Translations under genes and position numbers: made by a program | Source of the DNA: Mycolicibacterium smegmatis | Lineage (GTDB): Bacteria; Actinomycetota; Actinomycetes; Mycobacteriales; Mycobacteriaceae | Reading direction: 5' to 3' | Assembly (NCBI RefSeq): GCF_001457595.1 | Contig: NZ_LN831039.1 | Coordinates: forward strand, 330,001-362,000 | DNA: 32,000 nucleotides | Notes under the pieces: generated by a model | Database searches by the model: none | The model's input: the letters and a program-made list of their open reading frames with translations, nothing else | What the model was told of the DNA's origin: nothing | In this document: piece after piece, positions 5,161 through 14,291 of the stretch | Position numbering within the stretch: the first letter of the stretch is position 1 | Layout of the letters: every line of letters begins with the position of its first letter

Positions 5161-6006
5161 TCAGCGGATCGGTTCGTCGCCGAGCACGGTGGTGCGCAGC
5201 ATGTGCCGCGGCGAGTCGGGCTCGTACGGTGCGGCGCGGTGCAGCACGCCCTGGTTGTCCCAGATGACGGTGTCGCCGACGGACCATTTGTGGCTGTACA
5301 CCTTGTCGGGCGTGGTGGTGCGGGCCAGCAGTCCGTCGAGCAGGGCGCGGCCCTCGTCACGGTCCATGCCGACGATGTGATCCGCGGATGCGCCCAGCAC
5401 CAACGACTTCCGCCCGTTGCGGTGCGTCCACACCAGCGGGTTCTCGTGTGTCGGGCGCGCGGCCCACCGCCTGCGCTGCTCGGCTGTCGGGTCGGGATAG
5501 ACCCGTCGCTGCGAGGCCTCCAGCGAGTGGACGACGCGTAACCGGGCGTAGCGCTGCTTCTCGTCGGCGTCGAGGGACTCGTAGGCCGCGTAGGCGTTGG
5601 CGAACTCGGTCTCCCCGCCGCGCGCGGCGACCTCGATCGCGGACAGCACTGTGGCCTTCTGCGGGCACTCGTCGTTCAGTGGTGTGCAACCGTCGATGTG
5701 CCAGTCGAACGTGGCCTTGAGGTACTCGGCGGCCTTGTTCTTGGTCTGGTCGAGTGTGATCGGGTAGATGCCCGACACCGGGTGATGGCCGTCGGCGGAC
5801 CGGTCGACCTCACCGAGACGCTGCGAGAATGCCACCTGCGCTTCGGGTTCCAGGTACAAACCGCGGAACACCAGCACGCCGTTGTCCTCGAGCGCGTCGA
5901 GCACGGCCGCGGCGATACCGTCGTCGGTGGCCAGCCGTTCGGAATCGATGCCGACCACCTCGGCACCCACCGAGGCGGTCAGTTTGTTGATGGTCAGCAC
6001 GCTCAT
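5161..6006 (-). CDS. TauD/TfdA-family Fe(II)/2-oxoglutarate dioxygenase
   Basis: 281 aa. It has WHIDG (HxD facial-triad part) and a distal VLHRAAPY His/Arg region. AAAGGA sits 7 nt upstream of the ATG. Confidence 0.85.
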   Translation of the reverse strand: MSVLTINKLTASVGAEVVGIDSERLATDDGIAAAVLDALEDNGVLVFRGLYLEPEAQVAFSQRLGEVDRSADGHHPVSGIYPITLDQTKNKAAEYLKATFDWHIDGCTPLNDECPQKATVLSAIEVAARGGETEFANAYAAYESLDADEKQRYARLRVVHSLEASQRRVYPDPTAEQRRRWAARPTHENPLVWTHRNGRKSLVLGASADHIVGMDRDEGRALLDGLLARTTTPDKVYSHKWSVGDTVIWDNQGVLHRAAPYEPDSPRHMLRTTVLGDEPIR

Positions 6007-6034
6007 CGGCGCGTCCTTTCGGGTTCGGTACAGC

Positions 6035-6364
6035 TCAAGGCGTGGGCTCCCCGGTGCGCACCATGACGGCGTCGGCCGCGTCGACCGGCGCCGGTTGGTG
6101 CATGATCTCGACCGCCATCGCGACCATGATCAGCGAGTAGATCAGGTGCAGAAGATTGACGGCGTCGTCGGGCATGTCGTCGAGCGGGTACTTGTCGCAG
6201 TACTCGATCGCCTCTTCGAGGCGTGGAAAGAACGCGTCGTAGAAGTCGTGCAGTTGCGGCATGGAGCTGCTCACCCGCCGCTCCCACCGCGCGGTTTCGG
6301 TTGCCAGGCACCAGGTCTCGGCGTAGGGCTCGAGCTCGGCGAAGGCACTGGGGAGACGCGCCAC
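6035..6364 (-). CDS. Conserved hypothetical ~110-aa protein (S1), partner of the Rieske oxygenase
   Basis: 109 aa with a GTG start 1 nt after the stop of the upstream Rieske gene. It is a clear paralogue of 11288-11629. Shared residues: LP..FA.LEP...WCLA.E..R...FYDA..PR.EEAI.YCDK.PLDD.P.D..NLLHL.YS...EP.P. I recognise no known domain. Confidence 0.7.
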   Translation of the reverse strand: MARLPSAFAELEPYAETWCLATETARWERRVSSSMPQLHDFYDAFFPRLEEAIEYCDKYPLDDMPDDAVNLLHLIYSLIMVAMAVEIMHQPAPVDAADAVMVRTGEPTP

Positions 6365-6365
6365 G

Positions 6366-7631
6366 TCACACCCCCGCCGGTGCGGGCTCGCGCTGGTACG
6401 CCTCGACCCAGTCGACCGCGACCTTGTGCAGGTGACGCACCAGGATCTCCTGGTCGTTGAGCGGGTAGTCGTCGATGACGTCGTATTCGAGTGCGGCCTG
6501 GGTGCCGCCCAGCATCCCGGCGTCCTGCAGCGCGAACTCCTTGAGGACCACCGCGGCCACCTCGTGCTCGATGCGTTCGCGCACGGTGCGCGCCGGGTGG
6601 AAATAGGTGAACGCCTCGTAGCGGTGTGTGTTGTGCGACGTCGGCCAGTACCGGTAGAGCAGGTACCAGCCTCCGTAGATCAGGATCTCGATGTTCGGGA
6701 AAATCTGGAAGTTGCTGATGCCCCACGGTTCGATACCGCCCGGGTTGAGCCCGGTGGGCAGCTTCCCGATGTCCGGTGTGCGCCAGGGACCCACGAGACC
6801 GCTCTGGGTGGCCCGTTCGATCGGGTACATGTACTCAGGAGCGAGCAGCCAGCGACGGGTTCCCGCCGTGGACACCAGGCGGTGCGGTCCGTCGATCTGG
6901 AAATGTCCACAGGTGAAGCCCGCGTTGGGGTCCCGGACCTCGGGTGGCACCTGCTGGGTGTGCAGCGACGGGACGTGGTAATACTCCTGGAACGCGTCGG
7001 CGAAGATCTTCCAGTTGCTGTTGTTGTGCGCGACCCAGTCGTAGCGTTCGGTGAGTTTCTCGAAGGGGTAGTCGTCGAGTCCGGTCACCATGGGACCGAG
7101 GAACTCCCGAAGGCTCTGGCGCGGGGTGGTGTCGAAGTTCACGAACACGAACCCGGCCCACACGTCGCAGTGCACCTCTGCCAGACCGAGCTCGGTCGCG
7201 TCGAAGCCGGTGAACCGGTCGGCGTCGGGTGCGGCGATCAGCGACCCGTCGAGGCCGTAACGCCATCCACAGTGCCCGCACGCGAATTCGGTTCCGGTGT
7301 TGCGCAGTTCGGTCGCGCGGAAGTCGGGTGCGGCGACGGTGTGTCCGCGGCGCCTGCAGACGTTGTGGAACGCGCGGATCCGGCCGTCGGCGCCCTTGAC
7401 CAGCAGCAGCGACGCATCGGCGGCCTCGACCCGGCGCGTGATGTAGCTGCCCGCGTCGGGCGTCTCCTCGACGCGGCTGATGTTGAGCCAGGCGCGCTTG
7501 AAGATCGCCTCGCGCTCCAAGGCGTAGAACTCGCGGGAGGTGGAGTCGCGGAACGAGATCGGTCCGGTGCCCAGTTCTGGATAGTGCTCGGTCCAGGACC
7601 CTTCGGCCGGTTTGGGCCACTTGGTCGCCAT
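6366..7631 (-). CDS. Rieske-type oxygenase alpha subunit paralogue (R1) with non-canonical cluster-ligand motifs
   Basis: 421 aa with GGAGGT upstream of ATG 7631. It aligns end to end with R2 (11633-12898). The mononuclear-iron motif NWKIFADAFQEYYHVPSLH is present. The Rieske motifs read CRRRGH...CGHCGW instead of CxH...CxxH. Confidence 0.85.
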   Translation of the reverse strand: MATKWPKPAEGSWTEHYPELGTGPISFRDSTSREFYALEREAIFKRAWLNISRVEETPDAGSYITRRVEAADASLLLVKGADGRIRAFHNVCRRRGHTVAAPDFRATELRNTGTEFACGHCGWRYGLDGSLIAAPDADRFTGFDATELGLAEVHCDVWAGFVFVNFDTTPRQSLREFLGPMVTGLDDYPFEKLTERYDWVAHNNSNWKIFADAFQEYYHVPSLHTQQVPPEVRDPNAGFTCGHFQIDGPHRLVSTAGTRRWLLAPEYMYPIERATQSGLVGPWRTPDIGKLPTGLNPGGIEPWGISNFQIFPNIEILIYGGWYLLYRYWPTSHNTHRYEAFTYFHPARTVRERIEHEVAAVVLKEFALQDAGMLGGTQAALEYDVIDDYPLNDQEILVRHLHKVAVDWVEAYQREPAPAGV

Positions 7632-7670
7632 GTGAACCTCCGTGTGCGTGGGTGGATGGGATAGCGCGTG

Positions 7671-8414
7671 TCACATGACCGAGCCGCCGTTGACGCCGAG
7701 GGTCTGCCCCGTGATGAAGCCGGCCTCTTCCGAGCACAGGAATCCCACTGCCGCGGCGATGTCGGCCGGTGCGCCGAGCCTGCCGAGCGGGATGTTGGCG
7801 GCGATGGTTTCGTTGGGCGGAAGGTACCCCGCGGCCTGCGATGCGTGCTGCATGGGCGTCTCGATACCCGACGGTGGAATGTTGTTCACCGTGATGCCGT
7901 GCTTGGCGTATTCGCGCGCAAGGGATTTGGTCAACGTCAACAGCGCGCCCTTGGATGCCGCGTAGTGCGCGGCGAAGGGCGTTCCGCGCTGCGCGCTGGA
8001 CGACGAGATCAGCACGATGCGGCCCCAGCCGGCGTCCACCATGTCGGGCAGCGCGACCTGACAGCACCGGAACGTGCCGCTGAGGTTCACGTCGATCATC
8101 TGTGCCCACGACTGTTCGGTGATGTCGGCGAACGACGCGTAGCCGAACATGCCCGCGCTGGTGACCAGGATGCCGACGGCGCCCAGCTCGCTGCGCACCT
8201 TGGCGAATGCCTCCTCGACCGCGGCACGGTCGGTCACATCGGCGCCTACCGCGAACGCGGTCACGCCCTCGGATCGGAGATGGTCGGTGACGCGTTGTGC
8301 GGCATCGACATCGACGTCGAGCACCGCGACCTTGTGGCCGCGCCTGCCGAGTTCGTGGCAGGTCGCCTCACCCATGCCCGACGCGCCACCGGTCACCACC
8401 GCCACCCGGTTCAT
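7671..8414 (-). CDS. Short-chain dehydrogenase/reductase (FabG-like SDR)
   Basis: The start was moved to ATG 8414 (MNRVAVVTGGASGMG, i.e. TGxxxGxG), giving 247 aa. The catalytic YAASK motif is present. ATG 8414 overlaps the stop of the reductase gene (ATGA, 8411-8414). The track extension to 8558 is rejected. Confidence 0.88.
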   Translation of the reverse strand: MNRVAVVTGGASGMGEATCHELGRRGHKVAVLDVDVDAAQRVTDHLRSEGVTAFAVGADVTDRAAVEEAFAKVRSELGAVGILVTSAGMFGYASFADITEQSWAQMIDVNLSGTFRCCQVALPDMVDAGWGRIVLISSSSAQRGTPFAAHYAASKGALLTLTKSLAREYAKHGITVNNIPPSGIETPMQHASQAAGYLPPNETIAANIPLGRLGAPADIAAAVGFLCSEEAGFITGQTLGVNGGSVM

Positions 8415-9478
8415 TCGTACACCACCTTCACCGTGTGACTCGTGGGCAGTGCCTGACACGTCACCACCCAGCCCTCGGCGATCTCGTCGTCGTCGAGCGC
8501 GTCGTTGTTCAACAGCCGTGCACTGCCTTCCACCACCTGTCCGATGCACGTCCCGCACGTGCCGACCTCACATGAGGACGGGGCCTTGAGCCCGGCCAGT
8601 CGGGCGGTCTGCAGCAGCGTCGTACCGGCCCGGTAGGGCTGTGTGACGGTGGTGCGCCCCAGGACGATGGTGACCTCCTCGGTGGCAGCGGATTCCGCCT
8701 CGACCGCAGGATCGGCAGGGGTGACCGTGAAACGCTCCAGGTGCACACGCTGCGCCGGCACGCCCGCGTCGAGCAGGACGCGTTCGACGGTGTCCATGAA
8801 CGGGGCCGGTCCACAGATGTAGAAGTCGGCCTCCGCGGTGGAAACCGTGCTGGCGCCGAGGAATTCGGTGATGTGCCGCGCCGAAACCACGCCGTCGCGG
8901 GTATCGAGATGGTGGTGTACGTGCAGGCGGTCGCTGTGGGAGTCGGTGAGCCGGGTCAGCGCGTCGCGGAAGATCACCGAGTCGGCATCGCGGTTGGCGT
9001 AGAACATCCGGACCCGCCGGCCGGTGGTGGCGAGCGTCGTGTTCACCAGTGAGAACACCGGTGTCACACCGCTGCCGCCCGCGAACGTGACCACGTCGCG
9101 GTCGGCCGTGGTGAGCACGAAGCGCCCGTCGGGTGGGGCGGTGAGCAACCGGTCGCCCGCTGCGGCGGTGTCGTTGATCCAGTTCGACACCACGCCGTCG
9201 CGGTCACGTTTGACGGTGATCCGCAGGTCGGGGCCCACGTGTGGCGACGACGACATCGAATAGCAGCGGCGGTGTTCCTCGCCGCGGATCGTGGTCTTGA
9301 CGGTGACGAACTGCCCTGCCGTATAACGGAATCGGTCTTCGATCAGCTCGGGGACATCGAGGATCAGCGAAACCGCGTCGGTGGTCTCGCGGATGACGTC
9401 TTTGACCCGCAGCGGCGTGAAACCGTCGGCGTCGGTGAGACCGGCGGGTTCGTCGAGGGGTGCGGTCGATGTCTCCAT
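8411..9478 (-). CDS. Ferredoxin-NAD(P)H reductase with C-terminal plant-type [2Fe-2S] domain (Rieske oxygenase reductase, KshB/PaaE-like architecture)
   Basis: It has RCYSMSS (RxYS FAD motif), FAGGSGVTPVFS (NAD motif) and C-terminal CEVGTCGTC...VTCQA (Cx4Cx2C...C). The start is either ATG 9478 (METSTAPL) or GTG 9487. The ATG is preferred because a -10-like TACTGT sits 7 nt upstream, suggesting a possible leaderless mRNA. Confidence 0.88.
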   Translation of the reverse strand: METSTAPLDEPAGLTDADGFTPLRVKDVIRETTDAVSLILDVPELIEDRFRYTAGQFVTVKTTIRGEEHRRCYSMSSSPHVGPDLRITVKRDRDGVVSNWINDTAAAGDRLLTAPPDGRFVLTTADRDVVTFAGGSGVTPVFSLVNTTLATTGRRVRMFYANRDADSVIFRDALTRLTDSHSDRLHVHHHLDTRDGVVSARHITEFLGASTVSTAEADFYICGPAPFMDTVERVLLDAGVPAQRVHLERFTVTPADPAVEAESAATEEVTIVLGRTTVTQPYRAGTTLLQTARLAGLKAPSSCEVGTCGTCIGQVVEGSARLLNNDALDDDEIAEGWVVTCQALPTSHTVKVVYE

Positions 9479-9483
9479 CGCGG

Positions 9484-9504
9484 CCACAGTATCAAGTACT
9501 TGTC
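9484..9504 (-). promoter_or_regulatory. Operator-like motif GACAAGTACTTGATACTGTGG (site B) with perfect 10-bp palindrome CAAGTACTTG overlapping a -10-like TACTGT
   Basis: It matches 18/21 positions of 12995-13015 on the + strand. It lies between the MarR gene and the reductase gene, directly upstream of ATG 9478. Confidence 0.55.
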
Positions 9505-9545
9505 ATTCACCTCAAGGCTTGGCCGCACACCGAAAAACCGGGAAA

Positions 9546-10001
9546 CTACATCGGGTCGACGTGATCGGCCTGCACGGTGTGGCCCGTGCCCTGCTCGATC
9601 ACACGCCTCAGCAGGTCGCGCAGCTGCTCCTGCTCGTCACGTGAGAGCACCCCGAACACACGGTCGTGCGCGGCGATGGCGTCGGAAACCACCGAAGAGG
9701 CGACCGCGCGCCCCTCTTCGGTGAGGAACACCTGCAGGATGCGCGCGTGCTGCGGATCCTGCTTGCGCTCCACCAGCCCGCGCTTCTCCAGTGCGGTCAG
9801 GGCCAGTTGCACGCCCTGCGGCGTGATCAGCAGGCGCCGCGCCAGTTCGGCGCCGGACAACCCGGGCTCGTTGCTCAGCTGGCGCAGGACACCGATCTGG
9901 GCGGTGCTGACACCGTGGTCCTTGACGGCGTCGTTGACCGCGGTGAGCGAGAAGTAGAACGCTTGTTTGAGCCACCACAAGGTGTTGTCGGTGAGTTCCA
10001 T
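9546..10001 (-). CDS. MarR-family transcriptional regulator
   Basis: 151 aa with a winged-helix region GVSTAQIGVLRQLSNEPGLSGAELARRLLITPQGVQLALTALEKRGLVERK. GGAGA sits 5-6 nt upstream of the ATG. Confidence 0.9.
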   Translation of the reverse strand: MELTDNTLWWLKQAFYFSLTAVNDAVKDHGVSTAQIGVLRQLSNEPGLSGAELARRLLITPQGVQLALTALEKRGLVERKQDPQHARILQVFLTEEGRAVASSVVSDAIAAHDRVFGVLSRDEQEQLRDLLRRVIEQGTGHTVQADHVDPM

Positions 10002-10031
10002 GCCCGTCTCCTGCCGTGCGTCAACTCGACG

Positions 10032-11291
10032 CTAGCGCACCGCGGCGTCCGACGGCTCGCGGTGTTTGACAACCGCGCCGTCCTTCATCACGAACGAGAC
10101 GTCGAGTATCGCGGAGATGTCGGTGCTCGGGTCGCCGGGCACGGCGACGACGTCGGCGAGGTATCCGGGTGCCAGCCGGCCCAGCTCGTCGGAGGCATCC
10201 ACCAACTCCGCGGCGACCACGGTCGCGGCCTGCAGCGCCTGCATCGGGGTCATGCCGCGCTCGACCAGCGCGCACAGTTCTTTCGCGTTCTGCCCGTGCG
10301 GTATCGCAGGCGCGTCGGTACCGCACGCGATCCGCACACCGGCCGCAATGGCCTTGGGCAGCATGGCCTTCGCCCGCGGGAAGACGTCGAGTGCCTTCTT
10401 GCGCAGTTCGGGGGCGATGCGGTCGATCGCCATGGCATCGGTCAAGTACGTCGTCGACACCAGGAACGTGCCGTGGTCCACCATCATCTGTATGGTCTCG
10501 TCGGTCGCGAGGAACCCGTGCTCGATGCAGTCGATGCCCGCGCGGATACAGGCCTGGATCGCGGTGTCACCGACCGCGTGCGCGGCGACCTTCACGCCGG
10601 CACGGTGCGCCTCGTCGGCGATCGCGGCGAGTTCGGCGTCGCCGTACTGCTGGGCGCCGGGAGCGGTGCTGTGCGACATCACACCACCCGAGGCCGAAAC
10701 CTTGATCAGCTTGGCGCCGTGGCGGATCTGGTAGCGCACACACGCGATGACGTCGGGTACTCCGTTGGCGATGCCCTCGGCCACCGAGAGCGGCATGATG
10801 CCCGGCGCCATTCGCTGGAACACCGTGGGATCGAGGTGACCGCCGTACGGCGTGACGGCATGCCCGGCGGGGTGGATGCGTGGCCCCTGATGCCAGCCCT
10901 GATCTATTGCGCGCTGCAACGCCACGTCGAGCAGATAGCCGCCGGTCTTGACCATCAGACCCAGGTTGCGGACCGTGGTGAAACCGGCCTGCACCGTGGT
11001 GCGCGCGTTGACCGCGCCCCGCAGCGTCCGGTACGCCGGATCGTCCTGCACACCGTGCATCGGCGACGGCAGCCCTTCCGGGCCGCCGATGAGCAGGTTC
11101 AGTTCCATGTCCATCAGGCCCGGCAGCAGGGTGACGTCGCCGAGATCGATGACGGTCGCGGTATCCGGCAGCGGCGCAGCGGGATTCACCTCGGTGATCC
11201 GGTTGCCCTCGATGACCACGACGGCCGGTGCGCGGACCACGCCTGCGGCGACGTCGACCCAGCGCGCCGCGCGCAGTACGGTCTGCGTCAC
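10032..11291 (-). CDS. Amidohydrolase-superfamily protein (COG1228-like) lacking the N-terminal HxH motif
   Basis: It carries LIKVSASGG (Lys), VAAHAVG, CIEHGF and CGTDAP motifs. The expected PGLxDxHxH reads PGLMDMELN. The start is set to GTG 11291, which overlaps the S2 stop (GTGA). The track start 11360 would overlap S2 by 73 nt. Confidence 0.8.
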   Translation of the reverse strand: MTQTVLRAARWVDVAAGVVRAPAVVVIEGNRITEVNPAAPLPDTATVIDLGDVTLLPGLMDMELNLLIGGPEGLPSPMHGVQDDPAYRTLRGAVNARTTVQAGFTTVRNLGLMVKTGGYLLDVALQRAIDQGWHQGPRIHPAGHAVTPYGGHLDPTVFQRMAPGIMPLSVAEGIANGVPDVIACVRYQIRHGAKLIKVSASGGVMSHSTAPGAQQYGDAELAAIADEAHRAGVKVAAHAVGDTAIQACIRAGIDCIEHGFLATDETIQMMVDHGTFLVSTTYLTDAMAIDRIAPELRKKALDVFPRAKAMLPKAIAAGVRIACGTDAPAIPHGQNAKELCALVERGMTPMQALQAATVVAAELVDASDELGRLAPGYLADVVAVPGDPSTDISAILDVSFVMKDGAVVKHREPSDAAVR

Positions 11292-11629
11292 GGAACGGGC
11301 TCGGCGACGCAATCCAGCCAGGTCGCCCCCGAATCGGGCACGCGTGGCTGCTTCCAGCACTCCACCGGGAACGACACCGTCACCATCGAATACAGCAGGT
11401 GCAGCAGGTTCAGCACGTCCTCGGGCAGGTCATCGAGCGGGAACTTGTCGCAGTAGCTGATCGCCTCCTCGGCGCGTGGGGTGATCGCGTCGTAGAAGGC
11501 CTGGATCTCGGTCATGGTGCTCGCCAACCGTTTTGCGTAACGCAGCGGCTCACTGGCCAGACACCAGTCGGAAAACGGTTCCAGATCGGCGAATTCGGCC
11601 GGCAGCTTGTTCGGCACCTTGTCGGGCAC
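11288..11629 (-). CDS. Conserved hypothetical ~110-aa protein (S2), partner of the Rieske oxygenase
   Basis: 113 aa with a GTG start 3 nt after the R2 stop. It is a paralogue of S1 (6035-6364). Confidence 0.7.
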   Translation of the reverse strand: MPDKVPNKLPAEFADLEPFSDWCLASEPLRYAKRLASTMTEIQAFYDAITPRAEEAISYCDKFPLDDLPEDVLNLLHLLYSMVTVSFPVECWKQPRVPDSGATWLDCVAEPVP

Positions 11630-11632
11630 GGA

Positions 11633-12898
11633 TCACACTCCTGCGGTCTTGCGCTGGTAGTCCTCGATCCAGGCTGCGGTCTCGTAGTGCAGGTGCCGCA
11701 GCAGGATCTCCTGGTCGCACAGCAGGAACTCCTCGACCACGCGCGTCTCGATCATGCTCTGGGTGGCTTCGAGGGTGTTGGCGTCCTGCAGGCCGTACTC
11801 CTTGAACGACGCCGCCGCGAGTTCCTGCGCGAGCCGCTCACGCGGCGTGCGTGCCTGTGGGAAATACAACGTGCACTCGAAGGTGTGGGTGTTGTACGAC
11901 GTCGGCCAGTAGTGGTACGTCAGGTACCAGCCCTGCCCCCAGAACAGCATCACGAAGTTGGGGAACAGCTGGAAGCTGTCCAGACCCCACGGATCACACT
12001 TGGCGGGGTTGAGACCCACGGGCATCTCGCCGAGGTCGGGCTTGTCCCACGGGCCGAAAAGCCCGCTCTGGCAGATGTCCTCGATGGGTTTGCGCATCTC
12101 GTCTGGCATCTCCCACGCACGCACCCCCGAGGTGCTCACCAACCGGTGCGGTCCCTCGATGCGGTAGTGCGGTGCCTCGAAACCGGCCTCGGCCGCGGCC
12201 CTGCTGTAGGCGGTGGGCGACTGGTTCGCGTGCAGCACAGGTGCGTGGTAGAACTCCTGGAACGCGTCCATGTAGAGCTTCCAGTTCGCCTTGACCTCGG
12301 AGCGGTAGGTGAACCGCGAGGTCAGTTTGTCGAACGGATAACCCTCCAGGTTGGTGATCATCGGACCGAGGAAATCGCGCAGCGACTGTTCGGGTTCCTT
12401 CGCGAAGTTCACGAAGATGAAGCCCTCCCACACCTGGCAGTGCACCGGCACCAGGCCGTAGCGGCTCTTGTCGAGGTCGAAGAACTCCTCTTCCTGCTGC
12501 ACGAACGTCAGGTCGCCGTCCAGGTCGTACCGCCAGGCGTGGTACTTGCACGTGAACTGGCGGCACACGCCGCTGGTCTCCTGCTGTGGCAGGTCGTCCC
12601 ACACCAGCTTGTTGCCGCGGTGGCGGCAGACGTTGTGGAAGGCGTTGATCGTCCCGGACTTGTTGCGCACCACGATGATCGAGGTGTTGGCGGCCTTCAT
12701 CTCCTTGGTGAAGTAGCTGCCCTTGCGTGGAAGCAGTTCGACGCGACCGACGTTCAGCCATGCCCGTTTGAAGATCGCCTGCCGTTCCAGTTCGTAGATC
12801 TCCGGGCTGATCGAGTCCTCGTAGGACACCGGGCCGGTGCCCAGTTCGGGATAGTGCTGCGTCCAACTGCCTTCAGCCGGTTTGGGAAACCGCGCCAT
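11633..12898 (-). CDS. Rieske-type non-heme iron oxygenase alpha subunit (R2), canonical motifs
   Basis: The start was moved to ATG 12898 (MARFPKPAEGSWTQHYPELGTGP, matching the R1 N-terminus), with GGAGGAG upstream, giving 421 aa. It has CRHRG...CKYHAW Rieske motifs and the NWKLYMDAFQEFYHAPVLH iron motif. The track extension to 13114 is rejected. Confidence 0.9.
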   Translation of the reverse strand: MARFPKPAEGSWTQHYPELGTGPVSYEDSISPEIYELERQAIFKRAWLNVGRVELLPRKGSYFTKEMKAANTSIIVVRNKSGTINAFHNVCRHRGNKLVWDDLPQQETSGVCRQFTCKYHAWRYDLDGDLTFVQQEEEFFDLDKSRYGLVPVHCQVWEGFIFVNFAKEPEQSLRDFLGPMITNLEGYPFDKLTSRFTYRSEVKANWKLYMDAFQEFYHAPVLHANQSPTAYSRAAAEAGFEAPHYRIEGPHRLVSTSGVRAWEMPDEMRKPIEDICQSGLFGPWDKPDLGEMPVGLNPAKCDPWGLDSFQLFPNFVMLFWGQGWYLTYHYWPTSYNTHTFECTLYFPQARTPRERLAQELAAASFKEYGLQDANTLEATQSMIETRVVEEFLLCDQEILLRHLHYETAAWIEDYQRKTAGV

Positions 12899-13148: not shown

Positions 13149-14291
13149 ATGACGATCCACACCTCGCAGCGAACCCCGGCCGCCGAGCGCATCGCCGTGC
13201 GCTGCGTCGACTCCGACGTTCATCCGGTGCCGCGCCGCGGTGTGCTGGGGGAGTACATCCCCGAGCCGTGGCGCAGCGTGTACTTCGGCACGCACGACGT
13301 CGGCGAGCTGATCTACTACGACGCCCCCGATTACGCACACGCCTACGCGATGCGCGTCGACACGTTCCCCTCCGACGGCGAATTCGCGGGCAGCGATCCC
13401 GATCTCGCGTTCCGCCAGCTCATCATGGAAGCCGGCGCCGACATCGCGATCCTGGAACCCGCGGCGTACTCGGCGCACATCCCCGAGGCCAACCATGCGA
13501 TGAACTGCGCACTCAACGACTGGCAGGCCAACCACTGGCTCGACAGCCACAACAACTGGCACGAGCGCTGGCGCGGTTCCATCTGCCTGGCCGTCGAGGC
13601 ACCGGAACTCGCGGCGCAGGAGATCGAACGGTGGGCCGGGCACCCGTATTTCGCGCAGTGCCTCATCAAGGCCGAACCGCGCCCGTCCTGGGGCGACCCG
13701 AAGTACGACCAGCTGTGGGCCGCGGCCACCAAACACGACATCGTGGTGAGCTGCCACCTGTCACGCGGTGAATACGACGAACTGCCCACCCCACCGGTCG
13801 GATTGCCCAGCTACAACCACGATTTCATGGTCACGTACTCGTTGCTGGCGGCCAACCAGGTGATGAGCCTGATCTTCGACGGTGTGTTCGACCGGTTCCC
13901 GACGCTGCGCATCGTGTTCGTCGAGCACGCGTTCACCTGGATCCTGCCGCTCATGTGGCGAATGGACGCGATCTACGAGCGCCGCAAGTCGTGGATGGAC
14001 ATCAAGCGCAAACCCAGCGAGTACGTCAAGGACCACATCAAGTTCACGACGCAACCGCTGGATTACCCCGAGGACAAGACCGAACTGTCGCGGGCCTTCG
14101 AGTGGATGGAGTGCGAGGAGATCCTGCTGTTCTCCTCGGACTACCCGCACTGGACGTTCGACGATCCACGCTGGCTGGTCAAGCACCTGCCCGAACATGC
14201 GCGTGAGGCCGTGATGTTCCGCAACGGCATCGAGACCTACAAGCTGCCGGACACCGTGCCGGTGCTCGAAGGACAGGTCCGCGTCTTCTGA
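13149..14291 (+). CDS. Amidohydrolase_2 (PF04909-like) metal-dependent hydrolase/decarboxylase
   Basis: 380 aa. It has VDSDVHPV near the N-terminus and FSSDYPHWTFDD near the C-terminus. GAAAGG sits 6 nt upstream of the ATG. Confidence 0.85.
   Translation: MTIHTSQRTPAAERIAVRCVDSDVHPVPRRGVLGEYIPEPWRSVYFGTHDVGELIYYDAPDYAHAYAMRVDTFPSDGEFAGSDPDLAFRQLIMEAGADIAILEPAAYSAHIPEANHAMNCALNDWQANHWLDSHNNWHERWRGSICLAVEAPELAAQEIERWAGHPYFAQCLIKAEPRPSWGDPKYDQLWAAATKHDIVVSCHLSRGEYDELPTPPVGLPSYNHDFMVTYSLLAANQVMSLIFDGVFDRFPTLRIVFVEHAFTWILPLMWRMDAIYERRKSWMDIKRKPSEYVKDHIKFTTQPLDYPEDKTELSRAFEWMECEEILLFSSDYPHWTFDDPRWLVKHLPEHAREAVMFRNGIETYKLPDTVPVLEGQVRVF

Follow-up and report, generated by a model that had tools for sequence, protein, structure and literature searches.

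We analysed a window of 32,000 nucleotides (nt) of Mycolicibacterium smegmatis DNA (contig NZ_LN831039.1, positions 330,001 to 362,000), in which nine close-packed genes, all on the minus strand of high-GC DNA as judged from the coordinates of their open reading frames (ORFs), contain two copies of the same gene pair: a gene for a Rieske oxygenase alpha subunit, here called R, and directly after it a gene for a protein of about 110 amino acids (aa), here called S. In reading order the operon runs R2-S2-amidohydrolase-MarR-reductase-SDR-R1-S1-TauD, where SDR stands for short-chain dehydrogenase/reductase. The first oxygenase, R2 (11633-12898, minus strand, 421 aa), matches the Pfam models Rieske at 8e-14 and Ring_hydroxyl_A at 5e-35, and alignment with its orthologues fixes the position of its start codon. 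Its paralogue R1 (6366-7631, minus strand, 421 aa) also contains both Pfam domains, with a Ring_hydroxyl_A match at 1e-49 and a weak Rieske match at 2e-07. Each is followed by its cognate partner, an acidic protein with a predicted four-helix fold, namely S2 (11288-11629, minus strand, 113 aa, GTG start) and S1 (6035-6364, minus strand, 109 aa). R1 (ABK71342.1), S1 (ABK74227.1) and the reductase of the operon (ABK74307.1) are exact matches to proteins of M. smegmatis mc2155. As argued below, the two pairs probably belong to a clade of Rieske oxygenases that has its own, undescribed family of partner proteins.

The genes of each pair are tightly packed. Only 3 nt separate the stop codon of R2 from the GTG of S2, with a GGAG lying 8 nt upstream of the S2 start, and 1 nt separates the stop of R1 from the GTG of S1. 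These two spacings, together with the coordinates of the R and S genes, had been reported in the initial annotation and were reproduced here, every ORF lying on the minus strand. Further along, the TGA of S2 overlaps the GTG of the amidohydrolase gene (GTGA) and, from the ORF coordinates, the TGA of the reductase gene overlaps the ATG of the SDR gene (ATGA). Taken together, the gene junctions of the operon point to translational coupling. The two pairs are clearly paralogous: R1 and R2 share 52% identity across 417 aa (E = 1e-166), S1 and S2 share 49% identity across 107 aa (E = 9e-39), and judged from these alignments both similarities far exceed chance.

We then characterized S as a protein family. 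In a 90%-clustered database, S2 retrieved 4862 homologues and S1 retrieved 1249, while a 50%-clustered library contained 1187 S-family clusters at E <= 1e-3 and 625 at E <= 1e-10. The names attached to these matches in the source databases are either "hypothetical protein" or transferred labels inconsistent with the size of S, such as "Xaa-Pro dipeptidase". Neither S1 nor S2 has a match in Pfam or NCBIfam. When 33 diverse members were compared with Pfam at E <= 1, no weak match recurred, and a known domain of unknown function lying just under the threshold was rejected on these grounds. A profile built from 66 members and run against the PDB sequences gave nothing below E = 0.75. In the full-text literature we found no description of the S family or of the operon, the queries by MSMEG locus tag being weak since the tags were guessed. 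Members of the family are 104-125 aa long and uniformly acidic, with a median isoelectric point (pI) of 4.4.

Structure prediction gave a consistent picture. The AlphaFold2 model of S2, built with actinobacterial homologues, has four helices, a predicted local distance difference test score (pLDDT) of 81 and a predicted template-modelling score (pTM) of 0.68. The model of an S protein from a Deltaproteobacteria metagenome-assembled genome (MAG), about 40% identical to S2 and built with its own relatives, reached a pLDDT of 89 and a pTM of 0.77. The two independent models agree in an all-alpha topology, with helices at approximately residues 11-22, 27-36, 39-60 and 70-93 in S2 numbering. A Foldseek search of the PDB with the models returned no structural neighbour, the best E values being 3.9 and 4.4 at TM-scores of at most 0.40. 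The profile and structure searches that the initial annotation had proposed for S thus delineate a large family without a relative in Pfam, NCBIfam or the PDB.

Conservation within the family is equally telling as to what S is not. Across the family, P, L, W, R, R, L and E are invariant, and there is neither a conserved Cys nor a conserved His. The initial annotation had pointed to only two conserved Cys in S. This holds within the actinobacterial clades and fails for the whole family, since in distant members the two positions are occupied by Ala/Ser and Leu (WAL, YL). Because the Cys are replaced in this way, and the family-wide invariants are the seven residues above, S is not a ferredoxin or other metal-carrying protein. 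A ferredoxin is also ruled out by the predicted fold, the size and the absence of a Pfam match, and an NTF2-fold beta subunit by the all-helical predicted fold, the size and, again, the absence of a Pfam match. The earlier view that S is neither of the two is accordingly upheld.

We next examined how closely S is linked to R, starting from S. The sample comprised 85 loci, made up of one from M. avium, four of distant members (Acidobacteriota, a Deltaproteobacteria MAG and two other assemblies) and 80 that came from scanning a single genome of each species. The query of that scan was a narrower S alignment; the diverse S alignment had no conserved stretch. The loci span about ten phyla, including Alpha-, Beta-, Gamma- and Deltaproteobacteria, Acidobacteriota (Pyrinomonadaceae, Bryobacterales), Binatia, Methylomirabilota, Myxococcota, Spirochaetales and Thermodesulfobacteriota, together with Actinomycetota represented by Acidimicrobiia, Solirubrobacteraceae and many Mycobacterium species. 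They contain 115 S genes, 108 of which have R directly upstream on the same strand and four of which have R directly downstream. Two of the others lie at contig ends, and the last (locus L021) shares a cluster with its R, which lies 3.4 kb downstream. Hence 112 of the 113 evaluable S genes adjoin an R-type Rieske gene. The reversed S-R order occurs in loci L036 and L048 and in a tandem S-R-S-R array in L040 (3775-7559), so that adjacency is kept whatever the order.

An independent sample was obtained from the side of R by running R2 in tblastn against 72,556 plasmids. This returned 16 near-full-length matches, with identities from 59.7 down to 31.2%, and one split gene at 29.4%. All 17 of these R-clade matches were examined, and every one has an S-family ORF beside it, detected by tblastn with S2 in 13 cases and by the S profile hidden Markov model (HMM) in the other four (E of about 1e-15 to 1e-30). 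Here, too, the order is occasionally reversed, S preceding R in two matches, from Burkholderia arboris (H12/H49) and Cupriavidus pinatubonensis (L099). The five homologues from outside the clade that we inspected (at most 30.5% identity and at most 256 bits with the R HMM) have no S within 2 kb and are followed by unrelated genes. Since S stands beside all R-clade matches and beside none of the inspected outsiders, the association defines a sharply bounded clade of oxygenases.

The electron-transfer genes that accompany the pair are of several kinds. Minimal operons consist of S, R and a PDR/VanB reductase in Cupriavidus, and of R, S and a PDR/VanB reductase in Rhodococcus qingshengii, and the R-S cluster of Azospirillum encodes a flavin adenine dinucleotide (FAD) reductase and a Rieske ferredoxin. 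With the FNR-Fer2 reductase of the M. smegmatis operon this makes three arrangements found alongside S. The partner thus accompanies the oxygenase whatever the type of electron-transfer chain.

The two genes are also coupled in spacing and in evolution. Among 94 full-length pairs in the R-S order, 80 have their genes at most 10 nt apart, and 30 overlap. Across 98 pairs, the distance matrices of R and S correlate with r = 0.93, a value reached by none of 999 Mantel permutations, and S diverges as slowly as R does (slope 0.96). Many genomes hold two pairs and one holds three. In such multi-pair genomes, matching orthologues by R and matching them by S gave the same answer in 118 of 119 comparisons, and in every Mycobacterium locus an R1-type gene is followed by an S1-type gene and an R2-type gene by an S2-type gene. 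The suggestion in the initial annotation that the two R-S pairs had diverged together with their pairing kept is thus supported well beyond the window. Within the operon of the window, R1 and R2 have a reductase in common while each keeps its own S, a pattern expected of a specific, stable interface and not of a transient generic helper. Beside the two-pair operon of Mycobacterium sp. RTGN5 lies a third, divergent pair (L053:8219-9822), whose R and S are 43% and 54% identical to R2 and S2, respectively; the R-S module has therefore been duplicated repeatedly.

As for the oxygenase itself, R2 carries a canonical Rieske motif, CRHRGNKL...CKYHAWRY, and in both R1 and R2 the PF00848 match covers positions 1-207 of the 208 in the model. 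The sequence DAFQE(F/Y)YH(A/V)P(V/S)LH is present in R1, R2 and every other clade member in our alignment, and the bridging-carboxylate Glu of the iron/bridging motif E-x2-H-x4-H is found in 98 of 98 aligned R sequences. In CntA the corresponding bridging residue is E205, and such a Glu is a feature of the group V oxygenases (PMC7948474). The top PDB relatives of R are CntA and Stc2, ahead of the alpha subunits of classical dioxygenases, with the similarity limited to approximately residues 30-225, that is, to the N-terminal half. The best NCBIfam model is GbcA (NF058607), which matches at positions 40-223 only and, with 92 and 137 bits, stays well short of its 670-bit cut-off. By these comparisons the R clade is a distinct one, nearest to the alpha3-only group V and not part of it. 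Several residues are specific to the clade, namely an ELGTGP insertion, W157/G159/F160 and D395/R401. As a putative S-binding site they are suggestive only, and they were not used as evidence.

R1 of M. smegmatis departs from the clade at its Rieske site. Its residues 92-121 (window 7269-7358) contain the non-canonical motif CRRRGH...CGHCGW, a feature that does not appear in the initial annotation. Other residues here take the place of the two Rieske His ligands; the remaining R1-clade orthologues that we aligned, 27 in number, all have the canonical CRHRGNKL...CKYHGWRY. About 60 residues surrounding the cluster site have diverged, and the catalytic domain is conserved and intact. The same variant motif is present in two M. 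goodii genomes, and because it is kept there it looks selected, not decayed. A compensated frameshift was considered as the origin of the unusual region and rejected, given that the other reading frames contain no orthologue-like peptide and that the variant is conserved in M. goodii. Judging from the motif, R1 may have a remodelled cluster site (possibly Cys3His) or may be a cluster-less pseudo-oxygenase.

The remaining genes of the operon, all on the minus strand, are as the initial annotation had described them, each assignment being recovered with Pfam. Directly after S2 lies the amidohydrolase gene (10032-11291; Amidohydro_1, 2e-37), whose Xaa-Pro-dipeptidase-like product scores 366 bits with NCBIfam NF051886, under the 500-bit cut-off. 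It is followed by a MarR-family regulator encoded within the operon (9546-10001; MarR_2, 3.5e-15) and by the FNR-type reductase (8411-9487), which combines FAD_binding_6 and NAD_binding_1 with a C-terminal plant-type [2Fe-2S] domain (Fer2). In NCBIfam the reductase resembles PaaE and GbcB, with scores under both cut-offs. As the only reductase of the operon it is presumed to be the electron donor of both R1 and R2. An SDR-family oxidoreductase (7671-8414; adh_short, 1.5e-57) precedes R1, and a TauD/TfdA-family Fe(II)/2-oxoglutarate dioxygenase (5161-6006; TauD, 2e-58) is the last gene.

How much of this set is retained depends on the lineage. The full nine-gene operon is found in about 25 Mycobacterium loci, and the TauD gene comes after S1 in M. 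avium and M. goodii as well as in some 25 further Mycobacterium loci. Acidimicrobiia keep R2-S2-amidohydrolase together with an SDR gene, the order of S2 and the amidohydrolase gene being alike in M. avium and Acidimicrobiia MAGs; Binatia keep R-S-SDR, and elsewhere R and S alone persist. An SDR gene is the commonest other neighbour of the pairs (58 of the 85 loci) and the MarR gene is conserved in 23 loci. Apart from R and S, the genes around the pair vary between phyla.

Several neighbours outside the nine genes deserve mention. In the window, an Amidohydro_2-family gene without an NCBIfam match (13149-14291, plus strand, 380 aa) diverges from the upstream region of the operon, and a Binatia genome (L005) likewise has an Amidohydro_2 gene close to an R-S pair; the gene in the window may belong to the pathway of the operon. 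In acidobacterial and proteobacterial loci, SnoaL/NTF2-like genes, often with cupin genes, recur downstream of R-S, a few genes away (L002:6074-6580, L088:5345-5920, L098:6442-6885). The mycobacterial operon has neither SnoaL/NTF2-like nor cupin genes. NTF2 being the fold of classical beta subunits, these downstream genes could encode further oxygenase components. In a Pyrinomonadaceae MAG (L002:1-3665), genes of the glycine/sarcosine/betaine-reductase type (GRDA, GRDB, Gly_reductase) lie directly upstream of R-S and an octopine-dehydrogenase-like gene lies downstream. On plasmid 2 of Variovorax sp. WDL1 (L098:4706-9791), R-S is followed by genes for a SnoaL-like cyclase, a [2Fe-2S] ferredoxin, an alpha/beta hydrolase, a 2,5-dihydroxypyridine 5,6-dioxygenase and an isochorismatase-family protein. 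This set resembles lower pyridine-ring catabolism (maleamate-pathway-like) and hints that some members of the clade hydroxylate N-heteroaromatics. Together with the recurrent amidohydrolase, amidase and SDR neighbours, it gives a weak hint that the substrate of the operon contains nitrogen or is heteroaromatic.

What, then, does S do? The initial annotation had cast S as the dedicated partner of these oxygenases, and had tied that proposal to the synteny of S homologues with Rieske genes in other genomes. Such synteny is found, so that a lack of it can no longer be held against the proposal, which gains from the counts on both sides (112/113 from S, 17/17 from R, 0/5 outside the clade), from the coupling and from the co-divergence. 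We consider it very likely that S is a dedicated partner of R, when subunit, assembly factor and effector are taken jointly. Among these, we lean, by somewhat more than an even chance, towards S being a stoichiometric, cofactor-free and non-catalytic subunit that stabilises or shapes the R oligomer. The further step, that S is an obligate subunit defining an additional Rieske architecture, alpha3S3, and has a fold related neither to that of the NTF2 beta subunit nor to anything in the PDB, appears to us just as likely to be right as wrong.

The mechanism that we propose infers the physical binding of R and S, its stoichiometry and the structural role of S from the genomic patterns above. Translational coupling would lead to equimolar synthesis of each S and its own R. 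As a non-catalytic subunit, S would then remain stably bound to its cognate R and would stabilise or shape the oligomer, presumably alpha3S3, thereby doing, without a cofactor of its own, the job of the unrelated NTF2-fold beta subunit in alpha3beta3 enzymes. The one FNR/[2Fe-2S] reductase of the operon would feed electrons to both R-S oxygenases, which, with the amidohydrolase, the SDR and the TauD dioxygenase, would constitute a MarR-controlled catabolic operon.

Several observations weigh against a permanent subunit. CntA and Stc2, the nearest solved relatives of R, are functional as alpha3 without a partner (PMC12445004). In both structural models the C-terminal 20 or so residues of S form a low-confidence tail that is predicted to be disordered. 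An orphan S of 120 aa, with no R nearby and beside an EthD-domain gene, is carried by the lin plasmids of sphingomonads that degrade hexachlorocyclohexane (HCH); on pSRL1 of Sphingobium indicum B90A (L097:3282-4330) and on six other sphingomonad plasmids with the same fragment, it overlaps the stop of the EthD-domain gene downstream of linC in an IS6100-bounded segment, with a copy of IS6100 about 100 nt after S. This orphan is probably the remnant of a locus with the S-R order. On the other side, in favour of a subunit, stands one in-frame R-S fusion ORF of 536 aa (...DYTRETRRGEV-MTDELLPAQF...), found in a MAG labelled "uncultured Actinomycetes" (L044, 4717-6327), whose close relatives have the usual ATGA overlap between R and S. 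Instead of a natural fusion it may be a long-read indel error, and we give it little weight. Fused R-S proteins among the library representatives were set aside, those read closely being mostly frameshifted metagenome fragments, with L044 the only clean case. Finally, dedicated chaperones, too, can be cognate and translationally coupled, so that our data do not distinguish between the subunit and assembly-factor readings.

The rival that survives best is a dedicated maturation or assembly factor, which would bind nascent R transiently, help it to fold, to trimerise or to take up its Rieske cluster or mononuclear iron, and then dissociate. Parallels exist in the cognate activators of nitrile hydratases and in DmpK and MmoD of the diiron monooxygenases. 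Synteny, coupling and co-evolution fit such a factor equally well, the small, acidic S has a tail that is both flexible and conserved, and because the closest solved relatives of R work as alpha3 alone, the structure does not call for a further permanent subunit. On the other hand, lacking conserved metal-binding residues, S cannot itself carry iron or an Fe-S cluster. Moreover, its rate of evolution is as low as that of the catalytic subunit (slope 0.96), it is never common to paralogous R proteins in one genome (118/119), and it is possibly fused to R in nature (L044). Features of this kind point to a lasting interface more than to a transient contact, and we regard an assembly factor as unlikely, if a serious contender.

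Less probable still, and in our estimate rather doubtful, is a catalytic effector or regulator that gates the substrate channel, tunes the coupling of O2 activation to the substrate or offers a docking surface to the acidic or basic redox partner. The small effector proteins of the diiron monooxygenases provide a functional analogue. The strongly acidic character of S throughout the family (median pI 4.4), its conserved charged residues (E, R, R, E) and its strict specificity for one oxygenase clade would all suit such a role. However, three kinds of electron-transfer chain accompany S, which speaks against an adaptor for one type of reductase, and S shows no similarity in Pfam to effectors of the MmoB/DmpM type. 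No effector is known for any Rieske oxygenase according to a recent review (PMC12445004). It is highly improbable, lastly, that S is no oxygenase partner at all and merely a co-transcribed pathway protein, such as a ligand-binding or carrier protein or a cryptic enzyme acting on the substrate or product of the oxygenase: the orphan S beside the EthD-domain gene, without R, would fit, yet all seven plasmids with such copies carry one and the same IS6100-bounded fragment, the S family has no conserved residues of catalytic type, S divergence mirrors R divergence, and only R and S remain together when everything else in the pathway context is exchanged from one phylum to another.

Rieske oxygenases count among the major catalysts of catabolism and biosynthesis and are targets for biocatalysis, and a 2025 review recognises only the architectures alpha3, alpha3beta3, alpha3alpha'3 and alpha3alpha3 (PMC12445004). 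A conserved partner protein that defines a clade would add a new class of component to these enzymes, could explain failed heterologous expression of such "alpha-only" oxygenases, and would offer annotators a marker for a distinct oxygenase clade. If S is an obligate subunit, an entire, phylogenetically broad clade, the two M. smegmatis enzymes included, would lack activity or stability wherever R is produced alone.

It is instructive to compare S and R with known systems. DmpK/MmoD, the nitrile hydratase activators and EthD of the eth P450 cluster are all small, cofactor-free proteins encoded beside a catalytic subunit and needed for assembly or activity. They have no detectable sequence similarity to S, and none of them is known to act on a Rieske oxygenase. 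On the side of R, the group V enzymes (CntA, GbcA/BmoA and Stc2), which are two-component alpha3 oxygenases of quaternary amines, likewise have the bridging Glu and a flavin/[2Fe-2S] reductase as partner. Their likeness to R is partial-length only, and CntA and Stc2 are listed as alpha3 without an additional subunit (PMC12445004). The nearest counterparts of S in kind are the NTF2-fold beta subunits (Ring_hydroxyl_B; NDO, BPDO, HcaF), which have a structural and stabilising role in alpha3beta3 enzymes according to the same review (PMC12445004). Like S, as we propose it, they are small, cofactor-free and non-catalytic, and their gene adjoins that of the alpha subunit. In contrast to S, which matches neither Ring_hydroxyl_B nor SnoaL in Pfam and whose alpha clade is closest to alpha3-only enzymes, they are alpha+beta cones of 160-190 aa, whereas S is predicted to be an all-alpha protein of four helices and about 110 aa.

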